From the NCBI GenBank assembly GCA_964624815.1, contig CAZUZH010000001.1, positions 1,090 through 65,089 of the forward strand: a DNA stretch of 64,000 nt, in the 5' to 3' direction. Origin of the DNA: an uncultured Candidatus Saccharibacteria bacterium. Lineage in GTDB: Bacteria; Patescibacteriota; Minisyncoccia; Minisyncoccales; CAZUZH01. The stretch's first letter is position 1; each line of letters opens with the position of its first letter. Positions 5,573 to 62,621 of this stretch are shown piece by piece. The notes beneath the pieces were generated by a model that was given only the letters and a program-made list of their open reading frames with translations, ran no database searches and had not been told where the DNA came from. Made by a program: the position numbers and the translations under genes.

Positions 5573-5625
5573 CCTGTACAGCGGTTGGACATTTTTAGCA
5601 AACGATCGTTTACTAAAAATGTCCA
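5573..5625. repeat. REP-like palindromic element, copy A (cctgtacagcggttggacatttttagcaaacgatcgtttactaaaaatgtcca)
   Basis: 52 of 53 nt identical to 24042-24094. Core palindrome GCAAACGA-T-CGTTTGC, shared with 19137-19172. Confidence 0.6.
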
Positions 5626-5713
5626 GCATGGGTTTTTTCGAAAAAGGAGCTAATCTCCTTTTTTAATTTCTCAAGAGCAACCTTTGAGAAAAATTGAATT
5701 TTCTGAATTAATT

Positions 5714-5722
5714 TGATAAGAT
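5714..5722 (+). promoter_or_regulatory. Extended -10 (TGATAAGAT) 6 nt upstream of ATG; probable leaderless transcript
   Basis: The identical motif and spacing recur at 24175-24183 before ileS. No Shine-Dalgarno sequence is present. Confidence 0.4.
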
Positions 5723-5728
5723 AAAATT

Positions 5729-6997
5729 ATGAAATTCATTGCAGATTTTCATATTCATTCTAAATATTCCAGGGCAACGAGCAAGGATATGGATTTAGAG
5801 CATTTGGACAAGTGGGCGAAAATAAAGGGCGTCAATGTTTTGGGAACTGGGGACTTTACGCATCCGGAGTGGTTAGCTCATTTGAAAGAAAATTTGGAAC
5901 CGGCAGAATCCGGACTTTTTAAATTAAAGTCTCCTGTCCCGACTTCGGTCGGGGCACGGCAAGAAACTCGTTTTATTCTCACCAGCGAGATTAGCTGTAT
6001 TTATTCCAAGAACGGGAAAGTGAGAAAAGTTCATATTTTAGTTTTTGCTTCTGATTTTAAGACAGTTGAAAAAATAAATGCTCACTTGGGCTGTATAGGG
6101 AATTTAAAATCAGACGGACGGCCTATTTTAGGATTAGACTCTAAAGAATTAGCAAAAATTGTTTTAGAATGTTCGGCTGACTGCTTGGTGGTCCCGGCTC
6201 ACTTATACACACCCTGGTTTTCTTTATTTGGTTCTAAATCAGGGTTTGATTCAATAGAAGAATGTTTTGAAGAATATTCAAAATATATTTTTGCCGGGGA
6301 AACGGGACTAAGTTCGGATCCCCCGATGAGCTGGCGGAATTCATCTCTTGATAAAATTACTCTAATCAGTAATTCAGACGCGCACTCGCCCCAGAAAATA
6401 GGAAGAGAGGTAAATGTTTTTGACACAGAAATTAGTTATTCAGCTATTGCCAAGGCTATAAAAGAAAAAAATCCCAAAGAGTTTTTATATACCGTAGAGT
6501 TTTTCCCCCAGGAAGGCAAGTATCATTATGACGGCCATAGGGCTTGCGATATAAGTTTATCACCCCAAGAATCTAAAAAATATAATAATATATGCCCGGT
6601 TTGCGGAAAACCTTTAACCATCGGCGTTTTGAACCGAGTTGAAGAATTAGCAGACAGAGAAGAAGGTTTTAAGCCGGAAAATGCCATTCCTTTTAAAAGC
6701 CTTATTCCTTTGCCCGAAATTATCGGTTCAGCCGTTGGCGTGGGACCGGCCAGTAAGCAAGTTGCCAAGGAATATGATAATTTGATTGAGAAATTTGGCA
6801 ATGAGTTTAATATTTTATTGGAGGCAAGCCGAGGGAATTTGGAAGGAGTCACTAAGCAGGAAATTGCCGAAGGGATTATTCGGGTAAGGGAAGGAAAAGT
6901 TTATGTAGAACCCGGCTATGACGGAGTCTATGGAAAGATAAATATATTTTCACAAGAAGAAAAGAAAAAACCGACAAAACAAGATACTCTTTTTTAA
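5729..6997 (+). CDS. PHP-domain nuclease, endonuclease Q-like
   Basis: N-terminal DFHIHSKYS PHP motif, about 420 aa, C-terminal CPVCGK zinc-finger-like motif as in EndoQ. Confidence 0.5.
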   Translation: MKFIADFHIHSKYSRATSKDMDLEHLDKWAKIKGVNVLGTGDFTHPEWLAHLKENLEPAESGLFKLKSPVPTSVGARQETRFILTSEISCIYSKNGKVRKVHILVFASDFKTVEKINAHLGCIGNLKSDGRPILGLDSKELAKIVLECSADCLVVPAHLYTPWFSLFGSKSGFDSIEECFEEYSKYIFAGETGLSSDPPMSWRNSSLDKITLISNSDAHSPQKIGREVNVFDTEISYSAIAKAIKEKNPKEFLYTVEFFPQEGKYHYDGHRACDISLSPQESKKYNNICPVCGKPLTIGVLNRVEELADREEGFKPENAIPFKSLIPLPEIIGSAVGVGPASKQVAKEYDNLIEKFGNEFNILLEASRGNLEGVTKQEIAEGIIRVREGKVYVEPGYDGVYGKINIFSQEEKKKPTKQDTLF

Positions 6998-7006
6998 AAT
7001 TAAAAA

Positions 7007-8047
7007 ATGATAAAATCCAAAACCAAAAGTATAATTTTTTTTGCCTTTTTAGTTTTGATATTTTTAGCAGATTTAATTTTTATAAACTTTCTTTTAGAAA
7101 AACAAGAGGAATTTTACTCTGGTATCTTTAACCGGGCAGTAATTAATTTTTCAGAGATAAAAAAACTACGAGAAAATAGAACAGCAATTTTAATATTTGT
7201 AGGAGACATTATATTAGATAGAGGGGTGAAATATATGGTGAATAGAGAGGACAACGGGGACTGGAAATTTCCATTTTTGAAAATCGCTAATTTTTTGAGA
7301 AAAGCCGATATATTATTCGGCAATTTAGAAAGTATAATTTCTGACAAAGGAGAGAAAGTTGGTAGCATTTATTCTTTTCGGGCAGAGCCAGAAGCAATTA
7401 AGGGTTTGATTTTTGCCGGTTTTGATATTGTCTCTGTGGCTAATAACCATACTTTTGATTATGGCAGAGAGGCGATGGAAGACCATTTTAAGAGGTTAAA
7501 AGAGGCAAGGATTAATTATGTTGGCGGTGGATTTAATAAAGCAGAAGCCCAGTCACCAGTTATTAAAGAGGTCGCGGGCACTAAAATTGCCTTTTTGGGC
7601 TATACCAATCTCGGTTCAGAATATTGGAAAGCCGAAGAAAACAAATCCGGTATTGCTTGGCTAACAGAAAATATCGCCGAAGATATAAAAAAAACAAAAG
7701 AAATAGCGGATTTAGTTATGGTTTCTTTTCACTGGGGTGAAGAATATCAAAAAGTTACAGAAGAACAGGAATTTTTTGGCCATTTGGCAATTGATAGCGG
7801 AGCTGATTTAGTAGTCGGCCATCATCCTCATATTGTTCAGGAAATAGAGGAATACAAGGAGAAATATATTTTTTATTCTCTTGGTAATTTTGTTTTTGAC
7901 CAGAGTTTTTCAGAAGAGACTATGCAGGGATTGTTAGTGAAAGTTAAAGTGGACAAAGCCGGGATAAAAGAAATTATTTCTCAATCAATTAAAATTAACG
8001 AGTTTTTTCAACCAGAAGTTTTTTCAACAACAAGTTATTTAAAATAA
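7007..8047 (+). CDS. CapA-family metallophosphoesterase (poly-gamma-glutamate capsule biosynthesis-like)
   Basis: N-terminal TM segment, VVGHHPHIVQ and HWGEEY motifs typical of CapA/PGA_cap. Confidence 0.7.
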   Translation: MIKSKTKSIIFFAFLVLIFLADLIFINFLLEKQEEFYSGIFNRAVINFSEIKKLRENRTAILIFVGDIILDRGVKYMVNREDNGDWKFPFLKIANFLRKADILFGNLESIISDKGEKVGSIYSFRAEPEAIKGLIFAGFDIVSVANNHTFDYGREAMEDHFKRLKEARINYVGGGFNKAEAQSPVIKEVAGTKIAFLGYTNLGSEYWKAEENKSGIAWLTENIAEDIKKTKEIADLVMVSFHWGEEYQKVTEEQEFFGHLAIDSGADLVVGHHPHIVQEIEEYKEKYIFYSLGNFVFDQSFSEETMQGLLVKVKVDKAGIKEIISQSIKINEFFQPEVFSTTSYLK

Positions 8048-13768: not shown

Positions 13769-15544
13769 ATGAATAACAGAGAATTAGCTAAAATCTTTTA
13801 TGAGATGGCTCAGTATATGAAAATGGAAGAAATAGATTTTAAACCTTTTGCTTATGAAAGAGCAGGCGCAAGCATAGAAGCCTTGGAGCAGGATGTTGAG
13901 GAGATTTATAAAGAAGGAGGTGTAGCAGGACTGGAAAAGATTTCAGGAGTTGGAAAAAATATTGCCAGAAAGATTGAGGAGTATATAAGCACGGGGAATA
14001 TTAAGACATATCAGAGATTGAAAAAGAAAACACCTGTTAACCTTGAAGAGCTGGTTAATATTGAGGGAGTGGGTGTGAAAAAAGTTAAAATTTTATACAG
14101 AAAGTTAAAAATTAAAAACCTAAAAGATTTAGAAAAAGCTGCCAAAGCTCATAAAATCGCTCCCTTATTCGGTTTTGGTGAAAAAACTGAGAAAAATATT
14201 TTACAAGGAATTAAGTTTTTAAAAAGAAGCAAGGGGAGATTTTTATTAGGAGAGATTTTGCCTCATGTTCGTGAAATTATAGAAAGATTAAAGAGCTTGG
14301 AAGAGGTTGAACAAATCAGCACCGCCGGTTCTTTGAGGCGGATGAAAGAAACAATTGGAGACGCCGATATTTTAGTTGTTTCAGGGAAGCCGTCCAGTGT
14401 GATGGATTTTTTTTGTTCTTTACCAGAGGTCGTAAAAATTTGGAGCAAAGGAAATACGAAAAGTTCAGTAAGGATGGAAAATAGTTTTGGGCACGTTAGA
14501 AATAAGATTTCTAACGGAGTTGATATAGACATTAGGGTCGTAGCTAAAGAAAGCTATGGTTCAGCGCTTCAATATTTTACCGGCTCAAAAGAACATAATA
14601 TAATAACTAGAAAGATTGCTATTGCCAAAAAACTAAAATTAAATGAATACGGAATTTTTCAAGGCAAGAAAATGATAGCCGGCAAAACAGAAAAAGAGAT
14701 TTACAAAATTTTAGGAATGGATTGGATTCCTCCGGAAATGCGTGAGAATCAAGGAGAAATTGAACTTGCCTTAAAGAAAAAACTGCCAAGAATTATTGAT
14801 TATAAGGATATTAAAGGAGATTTACATTGCCATTCTAACTGGGACGGCGGAGTAAATTCAATTTTAGAAATAGCAGAAACAGCCATGGAAATGAGTTATG
14901 AGTATTTAGGAATTTCTGACCACACTAAGTTTTTACGCATAGAAAATGGCTTAGATGAAAGGCAGTTATCCCAGCAGAGAAAAGAAATAGAAAAAATAAA
15001 TGCCAAAATCCAAAACTCAAATGTCAAATCAAGCTCAAAATCCAAATTTCAAATTTTACAGGGATGTGAAACTAATATTTTAAATAACGGCTCGGTTGAT
15101 ATAAAAGACGAAGCCTTGAAGAAATTAGACTATGTTATTGCCGGTGTTCATTCAAGCTTCAAGATGTCTAAAGAAAAAATGACTGAAAGAATTATTAGAG
15201 CAATGAAAAATCCCCATATTAAAATAATTTCCCACCCCACCGGAAGAATTTTGAAAAAGCGGGAGGAATACCAGATAGATTTTGACAGAATTCTACGCGC
15301 AGCCAAACAAACAGAAACAATTTTAGAAATTAATGCCTATCCCGTAAGATTGGATTTAAACGACAAGAATATCAGGCGAGCAAAAAGAGCCGGAGTAAAG
15401 ATGATTATTAACACTGATTCCCACCAAAAAAATCAGCTGCGCTTTATAGAATTCGGCATTGCCCAAGCTCGCAGGGGATGGGCAGAAAAGAAAGACATTA
15501 TCAACACTCAGCCATTGCAAAAACTATTGAAGTTTTTGGAATAA
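13769..15544 (+). CDS. polX: DNA polymerase X family protein with C-terminal PHP domain
   Basis: HhH motifs, a polymerase-beta-like core and C-terminal PHP (GDLHCHSNWDGG). Carries the in-frame insertion at 15005-15058. Confidence 0.8.
   Translation: MNNRELAKIFYEMAQYMKMEEIDFKPFAYERAGASIEALEQDVEEIYKEGGVAGLEKISGVGKNIARKIEEYISTGNIKTYQRLKKKTPVNLEELVNIEGVGVKKVKILYRKLKIKNLKDLEKAAKAHKIAPLFGFGEKTEKNILQGIKFLKRSKGRFLLGEILPHVREIIERLKSLEEVEQISTAGSLRRMKETIGDADILVVSGKPSSVMDFFCSLPEVVKIWSKGNTKSSVRMENSFGHVRNKISNGVDIDIRVVAKESYGSALQYFTGSKEHNIITRKIAIAKKLKLNEYGIFQGKKMIAGKTEKEIYKILGMDWIPPEMRENQGEIELALKKKLPRIIDYKDIKGDLHCHSNWDGGVNSILEIAETAMEMSYEYLGISDHTKFLRIENGLDERQLSQQRKEIEKINAKIQNSNVKSSSKSKFQILQGCETNILNNGSVDIKDEALKKLDYVIAGVHSSFKMSKEKMTERIIRAMKNPHIKIISHPTGRILKKREEYQIDFDRILRAAKQTETILEINAYPVRLDLNDKNIRRAKRAGVKMIINTDSHQKNQLRFIEFGIAQARRGWAEKKDIINTQPLQKLLKFLE
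15005..15058 (+). repeat. 54-nt A-rich 7-nt-periodic element inserted in-frame in polX (encodes KIQNSNVKSSSKSKFQIL)
   Basis: About 47 of 54 nt identical to 31676-31729 inside glyQS, in the same reading frame. Confidence 0.6.
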
Positions 15545-19567: not shown

Positions 19568-19690
19568 ATCGATGCTAATATACAATGGATACTAATGATA
19601 CGAATATATTGTTCCGAGTCAAAACAAGGTAAACCGATTCCATTAGTATAATTAGTATGAATTAGTATGAATTAGTATGAATTAGTATAT
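19568..19690 (-). repeat. ~104-nt repeat module R1, a direct repeat of 19893-19994. Contains TTGACT-16 nt-TATCAT plus 10-mer tandem (attagtatga)x3. Ends 3 nt before the rplT start
   Basis: About 95% identity to R2. Confidence 0.5.
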
Positions 19691-19892: not shown

Positions 19893-19994
19893 ATCGATGC
19901 TAATATACGAATGGATACTAATGATACGAATATATTGTTCCGAGTCAAAACAAGGTAAACTGATTCCATTAGTATAATTAGTATGAATTAGTAT
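19893..19994 (-). repeat. Repeat module R2, with the same promoter-like content as R1. Ends 3 nt before the rpmI ATG
   Basis: Direct repeat of R1. Confidence 0.5.
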
Positions 19995-21622: not shown

Positions 21623-23203
21623 ATGATAAAAAATCAGATTAAAAAAATAATTAAAAAGGCAGTTATAGAGAAATTTGGAAAGATAAAAATTCCTGAAATT
21701 AAAATTGAGAAGCCGGAGAATAAGAAGTTTGGAGATTATTCTTCAAATATTGCTTTACAATTGTCAAAGGTTTTAAAAAAGAAACCGATTGAAATTGCGA
21801 AACGATTAAATCTTATGTTCCAGATTAAAGATTCCAGATTATTTGACGAAGTCAAAATAGCCAACCCTGGCTTTCTTAACTTTTATTTGAATAAAGAATA
21901 TTTACAAAATCAGATTCTAGAGATTTTGAAGAAATGCGAGAAATTTGGTGATTTGGATATTGGAAAAAATAAGAAACTACAAGTTGAATTTATCTCTGCT
22001 AATCCAACAGGTCCCTTAACAGTAGGTAATGCAAGGGGGGGTCCTTTTGGCGATGTTTTAGCCAATGTTTTGAAAAAAGCTGGGTATAAAGTTGAAAAAG
22101 CTTATTACATCAATGATTATGGAAATCAGATTTTGGCTTTGGGTCATTCAGTTTTGAAAGACAAATCCGCAAAGTATAAGGGAAAATATATTGATGATTT
22201 GAGAAAGAAAATAAAAGACAAAAATCCTCAAAAAGTTGGACAAAAAGCAGCCAAAATTATTATCAAAGAAATAATAAAGAAGACGACTAAAAAGATGGGA
22301 ATTAGACTTGATGAATGGTTTTTGGAAAGCAGGCTTTATAATTCAGGTGAGGTTGATAGGGTTTTGAAACTTTTGAAAAAGAAAAAGTTGATTTATAAGA
22401 AAGACGGAGCAGAATTTTTCAAATCGTTAAAGTTCGGGGATCAACGAGACAGGGTGCTTGTAAAAAAAGACGGAACCAAAACTTATTTAGCCGGTGATAT
22501 TGCTTATCATAAATATAAATTTGAAAACAAAAAATTTGATAAAGTGATAAATGTCTGGGGAGCTGACCATAGCGGTGATGTTCCGGGGTTGCAAGCCGGA
22601 GTTAGTGCTTTAGGACACAAAGGAAAATTAGATATTATTCTTTTGCAGTTTGTTACTCTTTTGCATGGAAAGAAAATGTCAAAAAGAAAAGGGATTTATG
22701 TTACTATGGACGAACTGCTTGATGAAGTTGGAAAGGATGTAACCAGATTCTTTTTCTTACAAAAATCAGCTGATAACCATTTAACTTTTGATATGGCATT
22801 AGCCAAGGAACAATCAAAGAAAAACCCGGTTTATTACATACAATACGCCTACACAAGAATACATAGTATCCTGAACAAAGCCCCAAATCCCAATGCCCAA
22901 TACCTAATTAAATCCAAAATCCCAATGACCAAATTGGAGGCTCCCTCGGAATTAGCACTTATTAAGCAACTTATTCGCCTGCCGGAGGTTGTTGAAGATA
23001 CTGCTAAAGATTATCAAATTCAGCGCTTGCCGAATTATGCCATGGAATTAGTAGCAGCTTTTCATAAGTTTTATGAAGAGTGCAGGGTAATTAGTAATGA
23101 CAAAGAAAAAACTCAAGCCCGACTTAATTTAGTAATGGCAACAAAAATCGTTTTAAAAAACATTTTATATTTAATGGGTATCTCGGCCCCGGAAAAAATG
23201 TAA
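21623..23203 (+). CDS. argS: arginine--tRNA ligase
   Basis: The N-terminal add-1 domain has FGDYSSNIALQLSK; a class I catalytic core and DALR anticodon-binding domain follow. Carries the insertion at 22880-22933. Confidence 0.9.
   Translation: MIKNQIKKIIKKAVIEKFGKIKIPEIKIEKPENKKFGDYSSNIALQLSKVLKKKPIEIAKRLNLMFQIKDSRLFDEVKIANPGFLNFYLNKEYLQNQILEILKKCEKFGDLDIGKNKKLQVEFISANPTGPLTVGNARGGPFGDVLANVLKKAGYKVEKAYYINDYGNQILALGHSVLKDKSAKYKGKYIDDLRKKIKDKNPQKVGQKAAKIIIKEIIKKTTKKMGIRLDEWFLESRLYNSGEVDRVLKLLKKKKLIYKKDGAEFFKSLKFGDQRDRVLVKKDGTKTYLAGDIAYHKYKFENKKFDKVINVWGADHSGDVPGLQAGVSALGHKGKLDIILLQFVTLLHGKKMSKRKGIYVTMDELLDEVGKDVTRFFFLQKSADNHLTFDMALAKEQSKKNPVYYIQYAYTRIHSILNKAPNPNAQYLIKSKIPMTKLEAPSELALIKQLIRLPEVVEDTAKDYQIQRLPNYAMELVAAFHKFYEECRVISNDKEKTQARLNLVMATKIVLKNILYLMGISAPEKM
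22880..22933 (+). repeat. In-frame repeat element in argS, 7-nt periodic (cccaaat/cccaatg...) with the AAAATCCCAATGACCAAA core (encodes APNPNAQYLIKSKIPMTK)
   Basis: The core recurs in ileS (26815-26848) and in intergenic 38279-38384 and 59070-59194. Confidence 0.55.
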
Positions 23204-23204
23204 C

Positions 23205-23828
23205 ATGAATAATAATTATTTTCTTTTGCGGCACGGGGAAGCTTTATCCAATCAAAAAATGATAAGTTCTTGCTGGCCGGAAAAATTTATTAATCCTTTA
23301 ACTAAAAAAGGGAAACAAGAAGCAAGAGAAGCGGGTTTGAAATTAAAAGATAAGAAAGTTGACCCTGTTAGAGATTACGGGAACAAAAATAAAACGCGTA
23401 GAGGGCAAATCTCTAACGGGGTTGATTTAATTTTCACCTCCGATCTTTTAAGGACAAAACAGACGGCCGAGATTGTCGGAAAAGAAATAGGCATTAAGCC
23501 AAAACCGGACAAAAGATTAAGAGAATATAATACTGGAATTTTTAACGGAGGGTCATTACATAAGTTTAGAGAAGTTTTTAAGAAAGAACAAGAAAGATGG
23601 AAAAAGAAACCTGTTAAGGGAGAAACTTATACTGATATAACTAAAAGAATGTATGATTTTTTTCAGGATATTGATAAAAAATATTCCAACAAAAACATCC
23701 TTATAATCAGCCATCAGCTTCCCCTTATACTGTTGGAAGGAAAGGTTAAAGGTTATTCCCAAAAGGGAATTTTAGAAAAATTTCCCAAAGGAAAAAGAAT
23801 CCAAACCGGCGAAGTTAAGCAATTATAA
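23205..23828 (+). CDS. histidine phosphatase family protein (phosphoglycerate mutase-like)
   Basis: LLRHGEALSNQ catalytic RHG motif. Confidence 0.65.
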   Translation: MNNNYFLLRHGEALSNQKMISSCWPEKFINPLTKKGKQEAREAGLKLKDKKVDPVRDYGNKNKTRRGQISNGVDLIFTSDLLRTKQTAEIVGKEIGIKPKPDKRLREYNTGIFNGGSLHKFREVFKKEQERWKKKPVKGETYTDITKRMYDFFQDIDKKYSNKNILIISHQLPLILLEGKVKGYSQKGILEKFPKGKRIQTGEVKQL

Positions 23829-24041: not shown

Positions 24042-24094
24042 CCTGTACAGCGGTTGGACATTTTTAGCAAACGATCGTTTGCTAAAAATGTCCA
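24042..24094. repeat. REP-like palindromic element, copy B
   Basis: 52 of 53 nt identical to 5573-5625. Followed by the same TGATAAGAT-6 nt-ATG arrangement. Confidence 0.6.
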
Positions 24095-24189
24095 ATATTG
24101 GTTTCTTTAAAAAATGAGTTAAGCTCCTTTTTCTGTATCTGCGGGAAAATTAAATTGAATTATTAGGATTAATCTGATAAGATAAAAAT

Positions 24190-27100
24190 ATGATAGATTT
24201 TCCAAAAACTGAAGAAAAAATATTAAAATTCTGGAAAGAAAAGAAGATTTTTGAAAAAAGCCTTAAAAAGACAAAAAAAGGCAAACGGTTTGTTTTTTTT
24301 GAAGGACCGCCTTTTGCTAATGGGTTGCCCGGAATTCATCATCTTTTGTCCCGGGCCTTCAAAGATGTAATTCTCCGTTATAAGACAATGCAGGGCTTTT
24401 CTGTTGAAAGAAAGGCTGGTTGGGATACGCATGGTTTGCCAACGGAAATGGAGGCGGAAAAAAAACTGGGAATTAAATCTAAAAAAGACATAGAGAAAAT
24501 CGGGATTAAGAAATTTATTGAAACATGCCAAAATAGTGTTTTCACTTACAAAAAAGAATGGGAAGAATTTACAGAACGAATTGGTTTTTGGCTTGACTTA
24601 AAAAATGCTTATATCACCTGTAGTAATGGTTATATTGAGAGTTTATGGTGGATTTTAAAAAAGGTTTGGCAAAAAGGACTTTTATACCAAGATTATAAGG
24701 TTGTTCCTTATTGTCCGAGATGCGGAACCTCGCTTTCTTCCCATGAGGTCGCCCAGGGATATAAGAAAATAACTGAAGAATCAATCACGGTTAAATTTGA
24801 ATTAGCTGATGAACCGGGAATATATATTTTGGTTTGGACCACCACGCCTTGGACATTGCCCGGTAATGTTGCCTTAGCAGTCAATCCTGCTATAGTTTAT
24901 GTTAAATTTTCTTTAAAGAATTATCCTGGAATTTCTGATGGGATTTATATAACTTCAAAAAAGGACTTTGATAATTATAAAAAGGAGATAGAAAAAGCTA
25001 AATCTAAAAAGGGAGCCGGAGTAGAAATTTTAGAGCAGACTAAAGGAAAAGATTTAATCGGAAAGAAATACAAACCCCTTTATCCTAATAGAGCGCCTTA
25101 TAAAATAATTGGAGCTGATTTTGTTTCAAATAAAGAGGGCACTGGAGTTGTTCATATTGCTCCGGCTTTTGGCGAAGACGATATGAAAGCTGGTAAAGAA
25201 AATAATTTACCAGTTCTTACTACGGTAGATGAACAGGGCAGAATGTTAACAAAAGATTATCCCTGGAATGGAAAATTTATAAAAGAAGCTGATCCGCTTA
25301 TTACTCAAGATTTAAAAAATAGAGATTTAATTTTTCATACCGAGGACTATGAACACGACTATCCCTTTTGCTGGCGCTGCGACAGCCCATTGTTGTATTA
25401 CGCTAAAACCTCTTGGTTTATTAAAATGTCAAGTTTGAGAAAAAAACTGCTTGAGAACAATAAAAAAATTAATTGGATACCAAATTATCTAAAAGCGGGC
25501 CGTTTTGGCGAATGGTTAAGAGAAATTAAAGACTGGAATTTGTCCCGAGAAAGATTTTGGGGAACGCCTTTGCCGATTTGGAAATGCCAAATCGGCAAAA
25601 GTCAAAAGTCAAAAGTCAAAAGTCAAAAGTATTGCGACAATATTAAAGTTATTGAGTCAATCAAAGAATTAGAAAAATTAAGCGGGAAGAAAATTAAAGA
25701 TTTACATCGGCCATATATTGATGAAATAACTTTCAAGTGTGAAAAGTGTGGAGGGCAGATGAAGCGAATTCCCGAAGTGGCTGACTGCTGGTTTGATTCT
25801 GGTTCAATGCCTTATGCTCAATGGCATTATCCTTTTGACCCCGATATTATATCCTCGCAGAGCTCGGATAACTACGTGGCAAGAAACAAAGAATTATCAA
25901 TTCCGTTGCCAAAGAATTTTCCAGCTGATTTTATATGCGAGGGCATTGACCAGACCAGAGGCTGGTTTTATACTTTGTTGGCCGTTTCTACTCTTTTAGA
26001 ACTAGAACCAGCCTATAAAAATGTTATTTCTCACGGAATTGTTTTAGACGCAAAGGCGCAGAAAATGTCAAAATCAAAAGGTAATATTGTTTTGCCCAAA
26101 GATGTTATTGATAAATGGGGCGCTGACTGCGCGCGATTCTATTTTTACACAATAAATTCAGTAGGAGAACCTAAGAGGTTTGACATTAAAGATGTTCAAG
26201 AGATTTCGCGGCGATTTTTCGGAACCTTGTGGAACTGCTGGATATTTTTTTCTACTTATACCCCGTTAGAGATTAATGGATTTCAGCAAAAGCGCAGAGA
26301 AAACAAACCTCTAACGGGGTATAGTGATAAAAGTTTTAAACCTAAAAAAGGTTTTGAATCTAAGAGTTTGCTTGATTGCTGGATTATTTCTCGTTTCCAT
26401 AATCTTTGTAAGCAAGTGATAGAGGATTTAGATAGATATTATGTGGTAGAAGCAGCCAGGCTTTTTGAAGACTTTGTTGATGATTTGTCTAATTGGTATA
26501 TTCGGCGATCTCGCCGGAGATTTCAAAAATCTGAAAACAACAAAGAAAAAGAAGGAGCGTGTCAAACCCTTTATTATGTTTTGTTAAATCTAAGTAAACT
26601 AATAGCTCCATTTACTCCATTTATTAGCGAGGAAATTTATCAAGGATTAAAGACTAAAGATTCAGTTCACCTTTGCGATTACCCCAAGCCAAATAAAAAA
26701 TTAATTAATAAAGAACTGGAAGAACGAATGAAGCAGGTTCGGGAGATAGTAACCATAGGTTTAGCTCATCGGTCCGAAGCCGGAATAAAGGTAAGGCAAC
26801 CCCTTTCTATGCTCAAAATCCCAATGGCTAAATCCCAAATTCCAAATGAAATGTTGGAATTAATAAAAGAAGAAGTAAATGTTAAGAAAATAATTGGGGG
26901 CAAGAAAATAGAATTAAATACTAAAATCACACCTAAATTAAAGGAAGAAGGAATAATTAGAGAGGTTATCCGGAATATTCAAACAATGCGGAAAAGGGCT
27001 GGATATATTCCAAAAGACAGGATTTTAGTTCAGGTTTCTTGCAACCCTGATTTAGAGAAAATTATAAAGAAAAATAAAAATTTAATTCTGAAAGAAACCC

Positions 27101-27210
27101 GGGCGGATAAATTTGAATTTGGTAAAAAATCAAAACAAAAACCTGCTATTGAACAGGAATTTAAAATTGACCAGCAAAAACTTTGGATAGCGATTAAAAA
27201 GATTAAGTAA
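24190..27210 (+). CDS. ileS: isoleucine--tRNA ligase (type 2, eukaryote/archaea-like)
   Basis: HIGH-class motif (PGIHH), KMSKSKGN, editing domain. Carries two in-frame repeat insertions (25596-25630, 26815-26848). Confidence 0.9.
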   Translation: MIDFPKTEEKILKFWKEKKIFEKSLKKTKKGKRFVFFEGPPFANGLPGIHHLLSRAFKDVILRYKTMQGFSVERKAGWDTHGLPTEMEAEKKLGIKSKKDIEKIGIKKFIETCQNSVFTYKKEWEEFTERIGFWLDLKNAYITCSNGYIESLWWILKKVWQKGLLYQDYKVVPYCPRCGTSLSSHEVAQGYKKITEESITVKFELADEPGIYILVWTTTPWTLPGNVALAVNPAIVYVKFSLKNYPGISDGIYITSKKDFDNYKKEIEKAKSKKGAGVEILEQTKGKDLIGKKYKPLYPNRAPYKIIGADFVSNKEGTGVVHIAPAFGEDDMKAGKENNLPVLTTVDEQGRMLTKDYPWNGKFIKEADPLITQDLKNRDLIFHTEDYEHDYPFCWRCDSPLLYYAKTSWFIKMSSLRKKLLENNKKINWIPNYLKAGRFGEWLREIKDWNLSRERFWGTPLPIWKCQIGKSQKSKVKSQKYCDNIKVIESIKELEKLSGKKIKDLHRPYIDEITFKCEKCGGQMKRIPEVADCWFDSGSMPYAQWHYPFDPDIISSQSSDNYVARNKELSIPLPKNFPADFICEGIDQTRGWFYTLLAVSTLLELEPAYKNVISHGIVLDAKAQKMSKSKGNIVLPKDVIDKWGADCARFYFYTINSVGEPKRFDIKDVQEISRRFFGTLWNCWIFFSTYTPLEINGFQQKRRENKPLTGYSDKSFKPKKGFESKSLLDCWIISRFHNLCKQVIEDLDRYYVVEAARLFEDFVDDLSNWYIRRSRRRFQKSENNKEKEGACQTLYYVLLNLSKLIAPFTPFISEEIYQGLKTKDSVHLCDYPKPNKKLINKELEERMKQVREIVTIGLAHRSEAGIKVRQPLSMLKIPMAKSQIPNEMLELIKEEVNVKKIIGGKKIELNTKITPKLKEEGIIREVIRNIQTMRKRAGYIPKDRILVQVSCNPDLEKIIKKNKNLILKETRADKFEFGKKSKQKPAIEQEFKIDQQKLWIAIKKIK
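25596..25630 (+). repeat. Perfect tandem (caaaagt)x5 heptamer array in-frame in ileS (encodes KSQKSKVKSQK)
   Basis: Read directly. Related arrays occur in pth (56261-56291) and topA (53881-53905). Confidence 0.6.
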
Positions 27211-31306: not shown

Positions 31307-32740
31307 ATGAGTAAAGAACAAAATAAAAATAAAGATTTAATGGAAAAAATTGTATCTCTTGCCAAAAGGCGGGGCTTTGTTTTCCTTTCGTCAGAAATTT
31401 ACGGCGGTTTTTCAAGCTCCTATGATTATGGACCATTAGGAGTTGAACTAAAAAATAATATCAAGCATGCATGGTGGAAAACAATGGTAAGAGAACAAAA
31501 GAACATTGTTGGATTAGATTCGGCAATTTTAATGTCGCCGAAAATATGGAAAGCTTCAGGTCATTTAACAGCTGGTTTTGCCGATGAGTTAGTTGAATGC
31601 AAAAAATGCCATAAACGATTTCGAAAAGACGAAATTGAAAAATTCCCGCTTTCGCTAAGGCTTCGGCGGGCAAGCAAAATCCAAAATCAAAATGTCAAAT
31701 CGAGTCCAAAATCCAAAATTCAAAACCTAAAGTGTCCGGAGTGCGGAGGCGAGCTTACAAAAGAAAAGAAATTCAACTTGATGATGAAAACTTTTGTAGG
31801 ACCAGTAGAAGATGAAGCGGCAGTAACATACTTAAGAGCAGAAACTTGTCAGGGAATTTATATGAATTATAAGAATGTTCTTAATTCAATGAGAATGAAA
31901 ATTCCTTTTGGTATTGCCCAGATTGGAAAAGCCTTTCGTAATGAGATTACTCCCGGAAACTTTACTTATAGAACTAGAGAATTTGAGCAGATGGAGATGC
32001 AATTTTTTATAAATTCAAAAGAGTCCCCAAAATGGTTTGATTATTGGAAAAAAGAAAGAATGAAATGGTATTTGGATTTGGGAATTAAAAAAGAAAATTT
32101 AAGATTTAGGGAGCATAAAAAAAATGAACTGGCTCATTATGCTAAAAGAGCAGTTGACATTGAATACAAATTTCCCTGGGGCTGGAAAGAGATCGAAGGA
32201 ATTCATGACCGTGGGGATTGGGATTTATCAAATCACTCAAAGCACAGCGGTAATGATCTAAGTTATTTCGACGAGAATACAAAGAAAAAATATACTCCTC
32301 ATGTTATTGAAACTTCTGCAGGAGCTGACCGCAGTACTTTGGTTCTCTTGGTTGATGCTTATTCTGAAATAAAAGGAGGTAGAACAGCTACTACTAAGTC
32401 GGCCAAAGAAATAGAAGTGGTTTTGAAATTTCATCCAAGCTTATGTCCTTTGAAAGTTGCAGTTCTGCCTTTGGTGAAAAACAAACCCGAATTAGTTAAA
32501 AAAGCTAAACAAGTTTATAAGCTCTTGCAGCCTCACTTTATGTGCCAATATGATGAAGTCGGATCTATTGGCAGGCGTTACCGCCGCCAAGACGAAGTAG
32601 GAACCTTATGGTGTATTACGATAGATTTCGAAAGTTTGGAAAAAGATGATGTAACTATCAGAGATCGCGACAGCATGAAACAAGAACGAGTAAAGATTAA
32701 TGAACTAATTGAGGTAATCAATCAAAAATTTAATGTTTAA
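31307..32740 (+). CDS. glyQS: glycine--tRNA ligase (alpha2 homodimeric type)
   Basis: N-terminal SSEIYGGFSSSYDYGPLGVELKNNIK signature of glyQS-type GlyRS; class II motifs; C-terminal anticodon-binding domain. Carries the in-frame insertion at 31676-31729. Confidence 0.85.
   Translation: MSKEQNKNKDLMEKIVSLAKRRGFVFLSSEIYGGFSSSYDYGPLGVELKNNIKHAWWKTMVREQKNIVGLDSAILMSPKIWKASGHLTAGFADELVECKKCHKRFRKDEIEKFPLSLRLRRASKIQNQNVKSSPKSKIQNLKCPECGGELTKEKKFNLMMKTFVGPVEDEAAVTYLRAETCQGIYMNYKNVLNSMRMKIPFGIAQIGKAFRNEITPGNFTYRTREFEQMEMQFFINSKESPKWFDYWKKERMKWYLDLGIKKENLRFREHKKNELAHYAKRAVDIEYKFPWGWKEIEGIHDRGDWDLSNHSKHSGNDLSYFDENTKKKYTPHVIETSAGADRSTLVLLVDAYSEIKGGRTATTKSAKEIEVVLKFHPSLCPLKVAVLPLVKNKPELVKKAKQVYKLLQPHFMCQYDEVGSIGRRYRRQDEVGTLWCITIDFESLEKDDVTIRDRDSMKQERVKINELIEVINQKFNV
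31676..31729 (+). repeat. 54-nt in-frame insertion element in glyQS (KIQNQNVKSSPKSKIQNL), homologous to 15005-15058
   Basis: Nucleotide-level identity to the polX insert. Confidence 0.6.
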
Positions 32741-38238: not shown

Positions 38239-38384
38239 AATTAACCTAATTATTCTAATTAACCTAATTAACCTAATCAATGTCTAAATCCCAATACCCA
38301 ATGACTAAAATGATTGATACATTAGACATTTTGTCATTGGGATTTGATTAGAAATTAGAAATTAGAAATTAGAAATCGAAAATT
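38239..38384. repeat. Composite intergenic repeat X: aattaacctaattattctaatta, then inverted copies of the AATCCCAATACCCAATGAC unit, then (gaaatta)n heptamers. Abuts the tatD ATG
   Basis: A 25-nt identical block and related architecture are found at 59013-59194. Confidence 0.55.
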
Positions 38385-43685: not shown

Positions 43686-45311
43686 ATGGAAGACATATTA
43701 GAAAATAAACCAGGTAAAAAAATGATTTTATTGGGCAACGAGGGAATTGTCCGCGGTGCTTTGGAATCCGGGGTTCAGTTTGTTTCCACTTACCCCGGCA
43801 CTCCAGCTTCGGAAATCGGCAATACTTTTTATAAGATTGCCAAAAAAGCAGGTTTATATTTTGAATTCTCCGCTAATGAAAAAGTTGCATTGGAGGCTAG
43901 TATTGGAGCCAGCTTTTCTAATTTAAAAACTCTTGTAGCGATGAAAAATTTTGGTTTAAATGTTTGCTCAGACGCGTTACTGCCCTTTGTTTATACTGGT
44001 GTTAAGGGGCCCACAATAATTGTGGTAGCAGATGATCCTTCTTGCCACAGTTCAGCTCAATCAGAAGAAAACTCAAGACCTTTTTCTTATCTAGCTCATA
44101 TTCCGACATTAGAACCTTCTGACCCTCAAGAATGTAAAGATTTTGTTAGGTTGGGTTTTGAAATTTCTAAAAAATTTAAAATTCCAACAATGCTCAGAAT
44201 AACAACTCGAGTTGCTCATCAGAAAATGCCGGTTAAATTAGGAAAAATAATAAAAAATAGTTCTACTGGCAAGTTTATTAAAAACAAAAAGCAATTCGTG
44301 ACAATGCCTCCCCGCGTTTTGGAAATGAAAAAAGAGCTTTTGGAAAAAATAGAAAAAATAAGAGAATTCGCTGAAAAAAATAAAATTAACAAAATTATCC
44401 AGATTCCAAATTTCAGATTCCAGATTCCCAAAATCGGGATAATTACTTCTGGGGTTTCCTATTTATATGTAATGGAGGCTTTAAAAGAATTGAAATTAAA
44501 TCTGCCTCTTTTGAAGCTTGGATTTTTTTATCCTTTGCCGGAAAAGAAAATTAAAAATTTTATCAAAGACTTAAAAAAAGTTTTAGTTATTGAAGAATTA
44601 GAACCTTGGTTGGAAAAAGAAGTTAAAATTTTAGCCAGAGAAATAAATCCTAAACTGCGAGTTTTTGGCAAAGATGTTCTTCCGGAGATAGGAGAGTTAA
44701 ATACAGATGATGCTCTATCTGCCATAGCTAAAATTGCGGGGAGGAAATTAAAATTAACCAAAAGGAGCTTGCCTCCTTTTCCAAAAAGATTTCCCCAGCT
44801 TTGTCCTGGTTGTCCATACTGGTTTGTTTTCGGAGCAATTAAAAAAGCTGTTGATCCTAAACAAGTAATTTTCGGCGGAGACATCGGCTGTTATATGCTG
44901 GCTGGTCTGCCGCCCCACAACATCCAGGATTATTTATCTTGTATGGGGTCTTCAGTTGGCATAGCTCACGGAATAAAAAAAGCAACTGGTCAAAAAGTAA
45001 TTACTTTAATCGGCGACTCTACTTTTTTTCATGCCGGCATTCCTGCTTTAATAAATACAGTTTACAACAAATCAAACCCTTTAATTATAGTAATGAATAA
45101 TGAAATTACTGCTATGACCGGCCATCAACCCCATCCTGGCGTAGATGGAATAAAGATTGAAAATATTGTTAAAGCTTGCGGAGTGAAAAATCTTAAAGTG
45201 ATTGACCCAATAAATCAAAAAGAGATGATCAATACTATTAAGGACTTTTTGAACAAGAAAGAAGTATCGGTAATTATTGCTCGGAGACCTTGTGTTTTTG
45301 TTAAAACATGA
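43686..45311 (+). CDS. iorA: indolepyruvate/2-oxoacid:ferredoxin oxidoreductase alpha subunit-like (TPP enzyme), lacking the C-terminal ferredoxin domain
   Basis: LLGNEGIVRGALESGVQFVSTYPGTPASEI and the GDIGCY TPP motif. Confidence 0.7.
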   Translation: MEDILENKPGKKMILLGNEGIVRGALESGVQFVSTYPGTPASEIGNTFYKIAKKAGLYFEFSANEKVALEASIGASFSNLKTLVAMKNFGLNVCSDALLPFVYTGVKGPTIIVVADDPSCHSSAQSEENSRPFSYLAHIPTLEPSDPQECKDFVRLGFEISKKFKIPTMLRITTRVAHQKMPVKLGKIIKNSSTGKFIKNKKQFVTMPPRVLEMKKELLEKIEKIREFAEKNKINKIIQIPNFRFQIPKIGIITSGVSYLYVMEALKELKLNLPLLKLGFFYPLPEKKIKNFIKDLKKVLVIEELEPWLEKEVKILAREINPKLRVFGKDVLPEIGELNTDDALSAIAKIAGRKLKLTKRSLPPFPKRFPQLCPGCPYWFVFGAIKKAVDPKQVIFGGDIGCYMLAGLPPHNIQDYLSCMGSSVGIAHGIKKATGQKVITLIGDSTFFHAGIPALINTVYNKSNPLIIVMNNEITAMTGHQPHPGVDGIKIENIVKACGVKNLKVIDPINQKEMINTIKDFLNKKEVSVIIARRPCVFVKT

Positions 45312-47271: not shown

Positions 47272-47313
47272 AAATCTCTGTTGTGGTAAAATCTACAATA
47301 GAGAATAAAGTTG

Positions 47314-47397
47314 TGCCGGAGGAGGGAGTCCAACCCTCACGAGCTTGCGCTCACAGCATTTTGAGTGCTGCGTGTATAGCAGTTTCACCACTCCGGC
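47314..47397 (-). tRNA. tRNA-Leu (anticodon CAA), class II with a long variable arm
   Basis: Acceptor GCCGGAG/CUCCGGC with A73, anticodon stem CAGCA/UGCUG, loop CUCAAAA, and a variable arm with GNRA loop. Atypical features: the D-loop lacks GG and the T-loop reads UUGGACU (G where C56 is expected). Confidence 0.7.
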
Positions 47398-55943: not shown

Positions 55944-56522
55944 TTAATTAAATTCACTCATTGCTTTTTCAATTCCCTGCCTTAAACTTGTTTCAATTGC
56001 TTTAACTATTTTCTGGAGAGTTTGCTTCAAGATTTTCTTTTCGTCTCTTGTGAATTTTTTGAGAACAAATTTTTTTTCAATCAGTTTGTAATGTTCGTAC
56101 GACGAGACGATAGGCCTAATTCCAATTCGGAAGCGGACAAAATCTTTTGTTCCCAAGTTTTCAATAATTGATTTAATTCCATTGTGGCCAGCTGGACCTC
56201 GGTTTTTAACAATTTTAATTTTGCCTATTTCTAAATCTAAATCATCGTGAACAACCCAAACATTTGACATTTGACATTTGACATTTGACATAATTTTCTT
56301 TACTGTCCTGCCCGATTCATTCATATAGGTCTGGGGTTTGGCTAAAATCACTTCATCGCTATCCCAAAACTTTTTAGAAATTTCAGCATTAAATTTTTTG
56401 GAAAACTTAAATTCAAGAAAATCATTTTCCTTAGCAAATTCATCAATTATTGTAAATCCAAGATTATGCCGCGTCTTGTCAAATTTTTTCCCCGGATTGC
56501 CTAATCCAATAATTAGTGTCAT
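55944..56522 (-). CDS. pth: peptidyl-tRNA hydrolase
   Basis: The start was moved to MTLIIGLGNPG. Conserved His/Asn region. Carries the in-frame (atgtcaa)n insertion at 56261-56291. Confidence 0.85.
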   Translation of the reverse strand: MTLIIGLGNPGKKFDKTRHNLGFTIIDEFAKENDFLEFKFSKKFNAEISKKFWDSDEVILAKPQTYMNESGRTVKKIMSNVKCQMSNVWVVHDDLDLEIGKIKIVKNRGPAGHNGIKSIIENLGTKDFVRFRIGIRPIVSSYEHYKLIEKKFVLKKFTRDEKKILKQTLQKIVKAIETSLRQGIEKAMSEFN

Positions 56523-56571: not shown

Positions 56572-57117
56572 GGGGGACGGGATTCGAAATAGAGTCAGCT
56601 TTAGAAGCGAAAGAATGGGTTAAGTTTAGTGCTCTATCTGCGAATATAACATTGGACTGGAAGCTCAAAATTAAGCGAGGTCAAGGAGCGACGACGAAAG
56701 TGTGCTTGAAAAGCACATTGAGGAGGAGCAACACAGAGATCTCTTAATTTTGAGCTTCCCCAAAGGGGCCAGGATATTTTTCCTTCTGGCGTTGTTGCTC
56801 GTCGCTTATGTGCCTAAGGGCACACTGCGCTCTTCGCGCCTAGCCAGAAGAAAAAATCTCTCTGGCCAGTACAGTGTTATGTTCGCAGAGAGAACACCAG
56901 GCACGACGACGAAGGAGTATTAGAACCTAATACTTCAAGGAGGAGTGACGAAGAAATTAGCCCATTCTTTCGCTTCCCTTCGGGCGGGCGAATTCGGGCA
57001 ATCTTCTGCGTTGCTCGTCGCTTATGTATCGCAGAGGATACACTGCTCTCGCTTGCGCCTTGAATATTGCCCGAATTCGCTCCGCTAAATTGATTCTGGT
57101 TCGAATCCCGTCCCCCA
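56572..57117 (+). ncRNA. ssrA: tmRNA (ssrA)-like RNA, 546 nt, with an internally duplicated ~230-nt module
   Basis: The 5' end GGGGGACGGGAUUCGAA resembles the tmRNA acceptor plus D-analog. The 3' end UCUGGUUCGAAUCCCGUCCCCCA is T-arm, acceptor, A73. The 5' and 3' ends are complementary. smpB is present in the window. Atypical: G3:C70 rather than G3:U70, and no clear ALAA-type tag. Confidence 0.6.
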
Positions 57118-59012: not shown

Positions 59013-59194
59013 CCAATTAACCTAATTATTCTAATTAGTATAATTTCACCCCGTTAGAAAATCAAAGATTTCTAACGGGGCAAGAATCCCAATGACGAAA
59101 TGTCTAATGTCTAAATAGTTTTGGTCATTGTGTATTGGGATTTTGGCATTGATTAGGTCAATTAGATTAATTAGAATAATTAGAAATTTTCATT
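59013..59194. repeat. Composite intergenic repeat Y, related to 38239-38384. Includes the hisS terminator hairpin ccccgttagaaa...tttctaacgggg and inverted AATCCCAATGAC units. Abuts the HIT ATG
   Basis: The 25-nt block ccaattaacctaattattctaatta is identical to X. Confidence 0.55.
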
Positions 59195-59530: not shown

Positions 59531-59548
59531 TTTTTTAGACACTTAACC

Positions 59549-59607
59549 CCAATTTTCAATTTTCAATTTTCAATTTTCATTGAATGACTCAATTTTCAAT
59601 TTTCAAA
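59549..59607. repeat. (caatttt)n heptamer arrays arranged as inverted blocks
   Basis: Read directly. Confidence 0.5.
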
Positions 59608-59691
59608 CCCTTGTTTATAAATAAAAGTTTGAAAATTGTATCATTGAAAATTTATTGTAAATTGAGCCTTGAAAATTAAAAATTTATTAAC

Positions 59692-62042: not shown

Positions 62043-62486
62043 ATGATTGAAATTAATAACCTAACAACTGTAGAAATTGATGAGAAAAAAATAAAAGTTA
62101 TTATTGAGAATATTTTAGAAAAAGAAAAAAAACGAGGTGATGTTTCTCTTGCTTTTGTTGGACAAGGACGAATAAGAGTGTTAAACAAAAAGTATAGGGG
62201 AAAAAATCGAGTCACTGATATTTTAGCTTTTTCTGAATCAAAAGTATCTTTTGAAAAATTTAGAGTTGGTCCAACAAAAAAATTTCCAGGTTTGGGGGAA
62301 TTAGTTATTTGTCTGCGGGAAGTTAAAAAGAATGCCAAGAAATATAATTCAAGTTTTGAAAAAGAATTAGCCCGGATTTTAATTCACGGAGTTCTCCATC
62401 TTTTGGGATACGAGCATGAGGGAGACAGGGAGGCGGAAAAGGAAATGGAGGAGAAACAAGAATATTATCTTTCGCAAGTAATATAA
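62043..62486 (+). CDS. ybeY: rRNA maturation endoribonuclease YbeY
   Basis: The zinc-binding motif HGVLHLLGYEHE. The start was moved to MIEINN; the upstream track extension covers a GC-rich hairpin (61990-62021). Confidence 0.8.
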   Translation: MIEINNLTTVEIDEKKIKVIIENILEKEKKRGDVSLAFVGQGRIRVLNKKYRGKNRVTDILAFSESKVSFEKFRVGPTKKFPGLGELVICLREVKKNAKKYNSSFEKELARILIHGVLHLLGYEHEGDREAEKEMEEKQEYYLSQVI

Positions 62487-62489
62487 TAA

Positions 62490-62610
62490 AGTTAAAAGTC
62501 TAAAGTCCAAAGTTAAAAGTCGCAGTATTAAATATAAAGTATTTTATTTCATATTTTACTTTTAACTTTATACTGGTATTTTTAATTTTTGACTTTTAAT
62601 TTTTAATTAA
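62490..62610. repeat. Heptamer arrays (gttaaaa/gtctaaa/gtccaaa) and inverted copies flanking an AT-rich core upstream of ftsA
   Basis: Read directly. Confidence 0.5.
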
Positions 62611-62621
62611 GCAAAGCGCTT

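Follow-up and report, generated by a model that had tools for sequence, protein, structure and literature searches.

Rickettsia palindromic elements (RPEs) are whole palindromes of about 100-150 bp that lie in genes, contribute one conserved peptide in one frame per family and are restricted to Rickettsia (Ogata et al. 2000 and 2002, summarised in PMC10969869). In Coxiella, the intervening sequence (IVS) carries an open reading frame (ORF) for an S23p protein in its loop, is bounded by terminal inverted repeats, contains heptameric repeats before the ATG of this ORF and undergoes RNase III excision (PMC4990558). Its heptamer is GACAGAT, and the IVS has been called a selfish element (PMC4990558). 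Heptamer repeats as such are over-represented in bacteria and have otherwise been little studied (PMC4692102). Here, we describe an A-rich repeat of about 56 nt that is translated in frame in two unrelated genes, polX and glyQS, of an uncultured Candidatus Saccharibacteria bacterium (GCA_964624815.1, contig CAZUZH010000001.1, positions 1,090 to 65,089). This stretch of 64,000 nucleotides has a GC content of 35% and is called the window in the following. The repeat belongs to a family dispersed over many phyla, which usually occurs as one arm of an intergenic hairpin that can enclose an S23p gene. On balance we consider it probable that both window segments represent solo A-arms of an IVS-like, S23p-associated inverted-repeat element with a wide distribution and that they are tolerated in disordered loops of their host proteins. 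The genes and copies concerned are the following:

13769..15544, plus strand: host gene 1, DNA polymerase X with PHP domain, 591 aa (from the ORF, homologs and Pfam domains)
31307..32740, plus strand: host gene 2, alpha2-type glycine--tRNA ligase (class II), 477 aa (from the ORF and homologs)
14999..15054, plus strand: copy 1, A-rich arm of about 56 nt, in frame in polX as NAKIQNSNVKSSSKSKFQ (family nhmmer profile)
31671..31725, plus strand: copy 2, A-rich arm, translated to KIQNQNVKSSPKSKIQN within the GlyRS reading frame (family nhmmer profile)
56260..56292, minus strand: partial arm relative, (CAAATGT)x4.6, translated in frame to MSNVKCQMSNV within the peptidyl-tRNA hydrolase (Pth) gene

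The window PolX matches PDB 3AU2 with E = 2e-120 and the window GlyRS matches PDB 8sld with E = 2e-152; homologs of both come from metagenome-assembled genomes (MAGs) of Patescibacteria (Paceibacteria/Nealsonbacteria-like). A preliminary description of this DNA, made from the letters alone, had reported one A-rich 54-mer in both genes. Its sequences, peptides and coordinates proved exact, the hosts are indeed a PolX and a class II GlyRS ORF, and the two copies share one reading phase (SNVKSS). The identity of 87% given there is slightly too high, although the strong match itself stands: polX 15004-15053 and glyQS 31675-31724 agree without gaps at 43 of 50 positions (86%), and the quoted 54-mers, likewise ungapped, at 44 of 54 (81.5%). 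A blastn search of the window against itself pairs the two segments with E = 4e-8, a common 29-nt degenerate pattern occurs at these two sites only and in none of 100 window shuffles, and 43 matches were never reached in 20,000 dinucleotide-preserving shuffles of the segment, the best of which gave 35. The identity is thus not at chance level once composition is controlled, but a harsher null reaches it occasionally: 110 of 20,000 random in-register CAAA+WKY heptamer arrays (0.55%) do so, which means that the periodic CAAA skeleton supplies part, not all, of the polX-glyQS identity. Both copies also have the irregular core CAAATGTCAAATCRAG in common. Against the family profile, nhmmer aligns the polX copy over model positions 2-55 (47 bits, E = 1e-13) and the glyQS copy over positions 6-54 (33 bits, E = 3e-9), and these are the only full-length family copies in the 64 kb. 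The partial relative in the Pth gene, the ORF of which is assigned to Pept_tRNA_hydro by Pfam, covers model positions 3-31 (E = 8e-6) and is a perfect period-7 array according to Tandem Repeats Finder; for the glyQS tract the same program returns only 70% matches with 12% indels.

The family extends far beyond the window. An exact-pattern scan with AAATGTCAAAT-N(4-8)-CAAAATCCAAA, using one genome per species, yielded at least 118 loci that conform to AAATGTCAAAT-N6-CAAAATCCAAA, among others from all major groups of the Candidate Phyla Radiation (CPR), from Dehalococcoidales, Chloroflexia, Gamma- and Deltaproteobacteria and furthermore from Planctomycetota, Nitrospirae, Omnitrophota, Calditrichia and Latescibacterota. 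The deltaproteobacterial matches include two chromosomes of 4.7 and 5.1 Mb. The GC content of the loci ranges from 27 to 61% and is at least 48% in 21 loci among the matches listed; one MAG contains at least nine exact-pattern copies. Alignment of 116 copies gives a unit of about 56 nt, AAWKY-CAAAWKY-CAAADYY-CAAATGT-CAAAT-CAADBY-CAAAATC-CAAAWKH-CAAAA. Conservation continues past the search pattern to sharp edges at -20 and +35, and the irregular 5+6-nt core, which the search pattern did not prescribe, is conserved as well (C 75%, A 98%, A 97%). The 7-nt periodicity noted before is imperfect: the conserved C residues are spaced 7,7,7,5,6,7,7, so that the arm differs from a simple heptamer array, and its units differ at the variable triplets instead of repeating a single 7-nt unit head to tail. 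A 28-nt core of the polX copy is found in identical form in MAGs of Dehalococcoidia, Proteobacteria and CPR. No Rfam family covers the element; at gathering threshold the window contains only a transfer-messenger RNA and three tRNAs, to which ARAGORN adds a tRNA-Leu at 47313-47397. A permissive Rfam scan of eight loci with paired arms returned only sub-threshold matches to plant microRNA hairpins, and an earlier description of such an element was not found in the literature searched.

In 817 kb of fetched loci, a profile search detected 200 family copies, and their usual form is an A-rich arm followed by a short spacer and an inverted T-rich arm, that is a long hairpin. All 47 adjacent pairs within 300 nt have the order A-arm then T-arm, with a spacer of 0-117 nt, and the reverse order does not occur among them. 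Such doublets fold with z = -3.8 to -5.3. Three further doublets with spacers of 348-363 nt enclose ORFs of the family PF05635 (S23p, 23S rRNA-intervening sequence protein). S23p-linked copies are all read in phase 1, and the invariant ATG of the arm core (AAATGTCAAAT) is, judging from the sequence, likely to be the S23p start codon. The S23p proteins of these cassettes are 60-74% identical across phyla. Altogether, the fetched loci contain 13 PF05635-like ORFs, seven to eight of which are flanked by family arms, and the other PF05635 ORFs examined lie between different 7-8-nt tandem arrays and their inverted complements. Genes of the latter kind, without arms of the main family but with an array upstream and its inverted complement downstream, are:

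L117:1224-1601, PF05635 gene
L108:4964-5326 and 7332-7691, two PF05635 genes
L005:3261-3653, PF05635 gene

The array units around them are GTGATTA, AATTTCT, AACATTAG and AATTAACG, the first of which equals a heptamer reported for Helicobacter pylori (PMC4692102). The window itself holds two ORF-less intergenic hairpins (62480-62612 and 59545-59690) that combine heptamer arrays of another kind with the corresponding complements, with the units (AAAGTYN)5 ... (TTTTAAN)n and (CAATTTT)8 ... (GAAAATT)n, respectively, and z = -6.5 and -7.3; their architecture matches that of the main-family doublets while the units are different. The polX and glyQS copies are solitary arms: the profile search of the 64 kb found no T-arm beside either of them and neither forms a fold (z = +1.0 for 14985-15075, +1.1 for 31630-31745), a GC-rich hairpin 5' of the glyQS copy apart.

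Translation of single arms is not peculiar to the window. Of the 200 copies, sixteen (about 8%) are situated well within ORFs of 200 aa or more, and 14 of these 16 are in A-rich sense, distributed over phases 0/1/2 as 5/2/7. Pfam confirms as hosts an amidase/GatA, MetRS, MnmA, a MiaB-like radical-SAM protein, GlmS (with two copies), GatB and TsaD, and SecA, IleRS and UvrA were recognised on inspection of the translated sequences. Compared with solved homologs, the insertion amounts to 15 aa in MnmA and 12 aa in GatB, and most orthologs of every host protein are free of the segment. The three phases lead to the unrelated peptides QMSNQIQNPK, SNVKSxSKSK and KCQIKSKIQN, which argues that no peptide is under selection. 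The share of stop-free copies per frame is 42/72/77% for the A-strand and 38/0/3% for the T-strand as compared with 24% for random 56-mers, and the A-sense bias of the coding copies fits this stop-codon asymmetry between the strands. These data bear on the view that a K/N/Q/S-rich linker, or an A-rich RNA signal for translation or stability, is the selected feature and was recruited independently by many genes. The position of the segments in loops with the frame kept, a conservation at the DNA level beyond coding constraint and the many intergenic copies that lie in A-rich sense immediately 5' of ORFs, where they would suit an unstructured leader, are in line with such a function. On the other hand, the use of three phases disfavours a function at the protein level, none of the three peptides is conserved, most orthologs do without the segment and the same sequence also occurs as the T-rich complement in hairpins. 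We regard independent recruitment as very improbable.

In both window proteins the segment resides in a poorly structured loop. The window PolX has 10 extra residues compared with T. thermophilus PolX (3AU2), situated at the transition from a helix to a strand in the PHP domain, and in the AlphaFold2 model the segment spans the helix end, a loop of low pLDDT (residues 418-424) and the start of the strand. In GlyRS it is located between two CxxC pairs, where most of 120 orthologs have two residues, and the model shows pLDDT <50 for residues 114-139. A loop position, as expected beforehand, is thus indicated for both proteins, as are extra residues relative to most GlyRS orthologs and to 3AU2; both loops are, however, old hot spots of repeats. 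A 14-aa loop of the type NSKFKIQNSKFRIL is found in 87 of 120 PolX orthologs. At the 55 loci read as DNA, this loop is encoded by a heptanucleotide array whose units are specific to the lineage, among them (AAATTCG)4, (AATTTCC)4, (AAATTGG)4, (CAACTTA)4, AAGTTTC and AAATTGC, perfect or nearly so and in frame at the same codons. The arrays are located as follows:

L003:1501-3225, L004:140-1864, L005:1501-3222 and L128-L207: PolX loop arrays, equivalent to window positions 14990-15060

Over 51 PolX ortholog loci the mean autocorrelation is 0.67 at period 7 and 0.18-0.43 at other periods. As for GlyRS, variable inserts of K/I/Q/N/S/P occupy the same place in about 20 of the 120 orthologs, and loop lengths vary widely. 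The DNA of four insert-bearing orthologs consists of (AAATCCG)3-4 or (AAATCTC)3 arrays plus a common 3' part, CAAAATCCAAAATTCAAAA, and some of the (AAATCCG)3-4 arrays adjoin the native GACGAAATC.

The polX of one other MAG, L002 (about 70% protein identity), has a near-window sequence at the same codons, broken by a 36-nt GC-rich hairpin. Together with the 51 PolX arrays and the GlyRS arrays between the same CxxC pairs, the L002 copy marks both loops as old repeat hot spots. At third codon positions the window polX and L002 are 85% identical within the element, which is the maximum of the gene (mean 52%, SD 12%) and points to constraint at the DNA level or to refreshment from other family copies. 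Among PolX relatives with more than 75% identity only the same sequence on a JGI contig was found, and the closest GlyRS homolog is about 72-78% identical. Going by these comparisons, neither the polX copy nor the glyQS copy is demonstrably a recent insertion. The previous assertion of a dispersed DNA repeat rather than convergent low-complexity sequence is nevertheless well founded, given at least 118 loci, three phases, at least 10 housekeeping genes as hosts and the third-position maximum.

The arrays raise the question of heptanucleotide microsatellites that arose in situ, each loop having grown its own array by slippage, with the likeness of the two copies reflecting a common preference for CAAA+NNN. 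The period-7 autocorrelation of 0.67 in 51 PolX orthologs with lineage-specific and often perfect units, GlyRS (AAATCCG)3-4 arrays contiguous with native GACGAAATC, the wide variation in loop length, the 0.55% of random in-register CAAA+WKY arrays that reach the observed identity and the over-representation of heptameric repeats in bacteria (PMC4692102) all agree with this. In-situ slippage clearly shapes the PolX and GlyRS loops. As the origin of the window copies it is nonetheless unlikely, because more than 100 loci from unrelated phyla, some in genomes above 50% GC, have the irregular 5+6 core and the sharp ends, because CPR, Dehalococcoidia and Proteobacteria have 28-mers in identical form, and because the same unit is found in inverted doublets and around S23p genes. 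The third-position conservation maximum would likewise be left unaccounted for.

The notion of one element copied into two genes stands insofar as both copies belong to the same family, but neither is a copy of the other. Of 116 family members found in other organisms, 79 resemble the polX copy more closely than the glyQS copy does, and the best match of the latter is a copy embedded in the MetRS gene of a Saccharibacteria MAG (47 matches versus 43 for polX). The likeness of the two is therefore a family resemblance and not a private one. Ectopic gene conversion or template switching within the genome would have transferred one pre-existing array, for example that of polX, onto the pre-existing glyQS array via heptamer microhomology without participation of a mobile element. 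Both loops are old array sites, array units in common supply the microhomology, and among the five GlyRS loci read as DNA the hallmark core occurs in that of the window only while CAAAATCCAAAATTCAAAA at the 3' side is found in all, as if the middle had been overwritten. Such a transfer is improbable in view of the nearer foreign relatives of both copies and of the differences between them at the variable triplets t3, t5 and t7. Direct copying from polX to glyQS was rejected, as the copies are not nearest relatives. Conversion from another family copy in an unsampled part of the genome is possible and would merge with the explanation by a dispersed element.

Both loops also harbor nested structures of a different kind. 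The one in the window is:

31645..31670, plus strand: GC-rich hairpin of 26 nt, CCCGCTTTCGCTAAGGCTTCGGCGGG, encoding PLSLRLRR, directly 5' of copy 2

It is the sole stable stem in the fold of 31630-31745 and has the appearance of a second small element that is nested there. Similar GC-rich hairpins occur nested in such loops or arms in L002 polX, L124 GlyRS, L006, L067 and L114. In particular, a hairpin of about 36 nt encoding (L)APYRTxGSGAG is present in the PolX loop of some genomes (L002:3001-4806, P0207, P0234) and in the GlyRS loop of others (P0036, P0078). It is a second element with these two loops as its targets and apparently nests in the A-rich arrays. A CCCCGTTAGAG palindrome can be grouped with the GC-rich hairpins encoding APYRTxGSGAG and PLSLRLRR.

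The interpretation of the window segments as solo A-arms of an IVS-like element builds on family membership, anatomy, distribution, hairpin form, S23p linkage, in-frame copies in several phases, loop location and DNA-level conservation, all of which are shown by the data. The full element consists of the A-rich arm of about 56 nt, a loop and the reverse-complementary T-rich arm, with the S23p/PF05635 four-helix-bundle gene in the loop of the long form; the ORF-less doublets would be its miniature form. The element may be mobile: copies or parts thereof would be deposited at new sites either by transposition-like insertion or by template switching or gene conversion between A-rich tracts. A selective filter would then leave single arms, in frame and in A-rich sense, as the survivors within genes. 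The A-rich strand is usually free of stop codons and would give rise to a hydrophilic K/N/Q/S/I/P peptide that may be tolerable in a surface loop and neutral for the host protein, and a lone arm would avoid the long hairpin which, by analogy with IVS, could serve as an RNase III substrate. Later changes would comprise slippage of the 7-nt units, nesting of GC-rich hairpins and probably conversion against other family copies, processes that would explain the PolX PHP-domain loop and the GlyRS Zn-knuckle loop as long-lived hot spots.

Several points weigh against this interpretation. Since arrays occur in many orthologs of both loops, in-situ slippage contributes and an insertion at either site is undatable and unproven, and some GlyRS arrays look as if they had grown out of the native codons GAC-GAA-ATC. 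The search pattern was taken from the window copies, so that the apparent uniformity at 22 positions is built in. Some MAG contigs may carry wrong taxon labels, but the matches include multi-Mb deltaproteobacterial chromosomes as well as Dehalococcoidales and Calditrichia contigs of 0.6-0.9 Mb. None of 10 small ORFs in the window is a PF05635 gene and a doublet of the exact family is not present there. The exact pattern has no match in the 2.9 million viral contigs of IMG/VR. Judged by eye, no consistent direct repeat indicative of a target-site duplication surrounds the 47 doublets. The only linked ORF seen is PF05635 and no transposase is linked, a genome-wide search for insertion sequence elements not having been made. 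Of the mobile or selfish element proposed at the outset, the dispersed family is thus established and mobility is conjectural, with no target-site duplication seen, no transposase and no close pair of genomes with and without the segment.

A wider view can be taken, which we consider possible though rather doubtful. Heptamer-periodic A-arm/T-arm hairpins, with or without an S23p gene (PF05635, Avd-like), would constitute one unrecognised class of mobile elements, and the classical 23S rRNA IVS would represent only the most familiar place of insertion. Intergenic DNA would be settled by the same cassette as well, and in many phyla so would loops of essential proteins, there in the form of half-elements. 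S23p would act as propagation or maintenance factor, and the 7-nt periodicity with its constant tetranucleotide and variable triplet would be the footprint of the mechanism. This would explain the homogenised, lineage-specific heptamer arrays at the same PolX and GlyRS codons.

Should solo arms of an inverted-repeat element indeed be involved, the RPE paradigm of in-frame selfish DNA would extend to the CPR and other phyla, with the new twist that genes retain half-palindromes only in the orientation of the stop-poor strand, in whatever phase. A 56-nt arm that is found across phyla and includes the S23p start codon would lend itself as a defined substrate to assays of binding, cleavage and mobility; the function of the very common S23p or "four helix bundle" genes is a long-standing question, as is how rRNA intervening sequences originated. 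Genome annotation would be affected as well, because arms make ORFs longer and give rise to false N-terminal extensions and to "hypothetical proteins" of low complexity in MAGs. Moreover, they would add variable loops to phylogenetic markers such as aminoacyl-tRNA synthetases, SecA and UvrA.

The window contains a number of further repeats. In the IleRS ORF (24190..27210), a perfect (CAAAAGT)x5 array at 25596-25630 is translated in frame as KSQKSKVKSQK and preceded by a 31-nt palindrome (25569-25599). The array appears to lie between the cysteines of a CxxC knuckle (WKCQ-IGKSQKSKVKSQKY-CDN versus KCQECDEE in L069 IleRS). Heptamer tracts of the CCCAAT/CCAAAT/TCCAGAT type occur in frame at 22883-22932 (ArgRS ORF 21623..23203), 26813-26854 (IleRS) and 44398-44428 (ORF 43686..45311) and encode PNPNAQYLIKSKIPMTK, KIPMAKSQIPNE and IQIPNFRFQIP, respectively. 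A second family of small repeats is formed by a true palindrome of about 60 nt, (A)CCCYGTTAGAG ... CTCTAACGGGG(T), with the following copies:

23362-23422, in the His_Phos_1 ORF 23205..23828
26260-26320, in the IleRS gene
59049-59080, intergenic
11546, half-site

It is read in frame in the His_Phos_1 and IleRS genes as DPVRDYGNKNKTRRGQISNGV and TPLEINGFQQKRRENKPLTGY and comes nearer to the RPE pattern than the A-rich arm does. An intergenic pair of 99 nt in opposite orientation (38246-38344 and 59085-59183, 89% complementary), built of AATTAACCT, AATCCCAATGAC and ATTAGAA units, lies upstream of a TatD gene and a HIT-family gene. The direct repeat of 91 nt at 5573-5663 and 24042-24132 is 89% identical and includes TTGGACATTTTTAGCAAACGATCGTTTRCTAAAAATGTCCA, an almost perfect palindrome of 41 nt. 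A further conserved block comes after it (5691-5732 and 24152-24193), immediately upstream of two ORFs that include the IleRS ORF, and repeat and block together could be a shared operator or terminator-promoter module. In the rplT / rpmI / infC region, two direct repeats of 102 nt (19568-19668 and 19893-19994; 98% identical, 326 nt apart) each end in ATTAGTATGA tandem units. Finally, several inverted repeats of 57-80 nt (81-88% complementary) join positions 203-476, on the side of the tRNA-Arg gene (125-199), with 56580-57108, a region 56 kb away, and 203-228 and 451-476 form a perfect inverted pair of 26 nt.

When compared with the systems introduced above, the window copies resemble RPEs: small dispersed repeats reside in frame in unrelated housekeeping genes as well as between genes, the peptide is tolerated and a reading as selfish DNA suggests itself. 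The initial likening to RPEs thus holds for the in-frame occurrence in many unrelated conserved genes and fails in other respects. RPEs are whole palindromes whereas the coding copies here are single, unfolded arms of 54-56 nt; phases 0, 1 and 2 with three peptides replace one frame per family; and instead of being bound to a genus, the family is found in a CPR/Patescibacteria host and in many phyla and has a long form that carries a PF05635 gene. With the IVS of 23S rRNA genes (Coxiella, Leptospira) the long form of the family shares the PF05635 ORF in the loop of a long inverted-repeat stem, and both are taken to be selfish and to spread horizontally (PMC4990558). The heptameric repeats that precede the ATG of the IVS ORF in variable number have their counterpart in the heptamer-periodic arm that here holds the ATG (PMC4990558). 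The classical site of IVS is helix 25 or 45 of 23S rRNA, however, while the copies described here are intergenic or in protein-coding genes, and an Rfam scan found no rRNA gene in the window. Furthermore, classical IVS are excised by RNase III, whereas the window copies are half-stems within coding sequence and most family copies are devoid of an ORF. REPINs and MITE-like doublets (PMC3116915, PMC10969869) are comparable in the inverted doublet hairpin, the many copies per genome and the coexistence of ORF-bearing and ORF-less forms. Unlike these, the present family is A/T-rich and heptamer-periodic and not of the GC-rich REP type, it has no linked RAYT or other transposase and no target-site duplication seen by eye, and its associated protein is a four-helix bundle without known transposase activity. 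Another parallel is provided by the cyanobacterial STRR heptanucleotide repeats, reportedly described by Mazel et al. in 1990 and said to have been found inside the RNase P RNA gene by Vioque in 1997. STRRs likewise consist of 7-nt units in high copy number and lie inside functional genes without destroying them. The arrays in PolX and GlyRS orthologs and the Pth array are of this kind, whereas the 56-nt arm is not a homogeneous tandem but is characterized by variable triplets, an irregular core and a defined length with defined edges.

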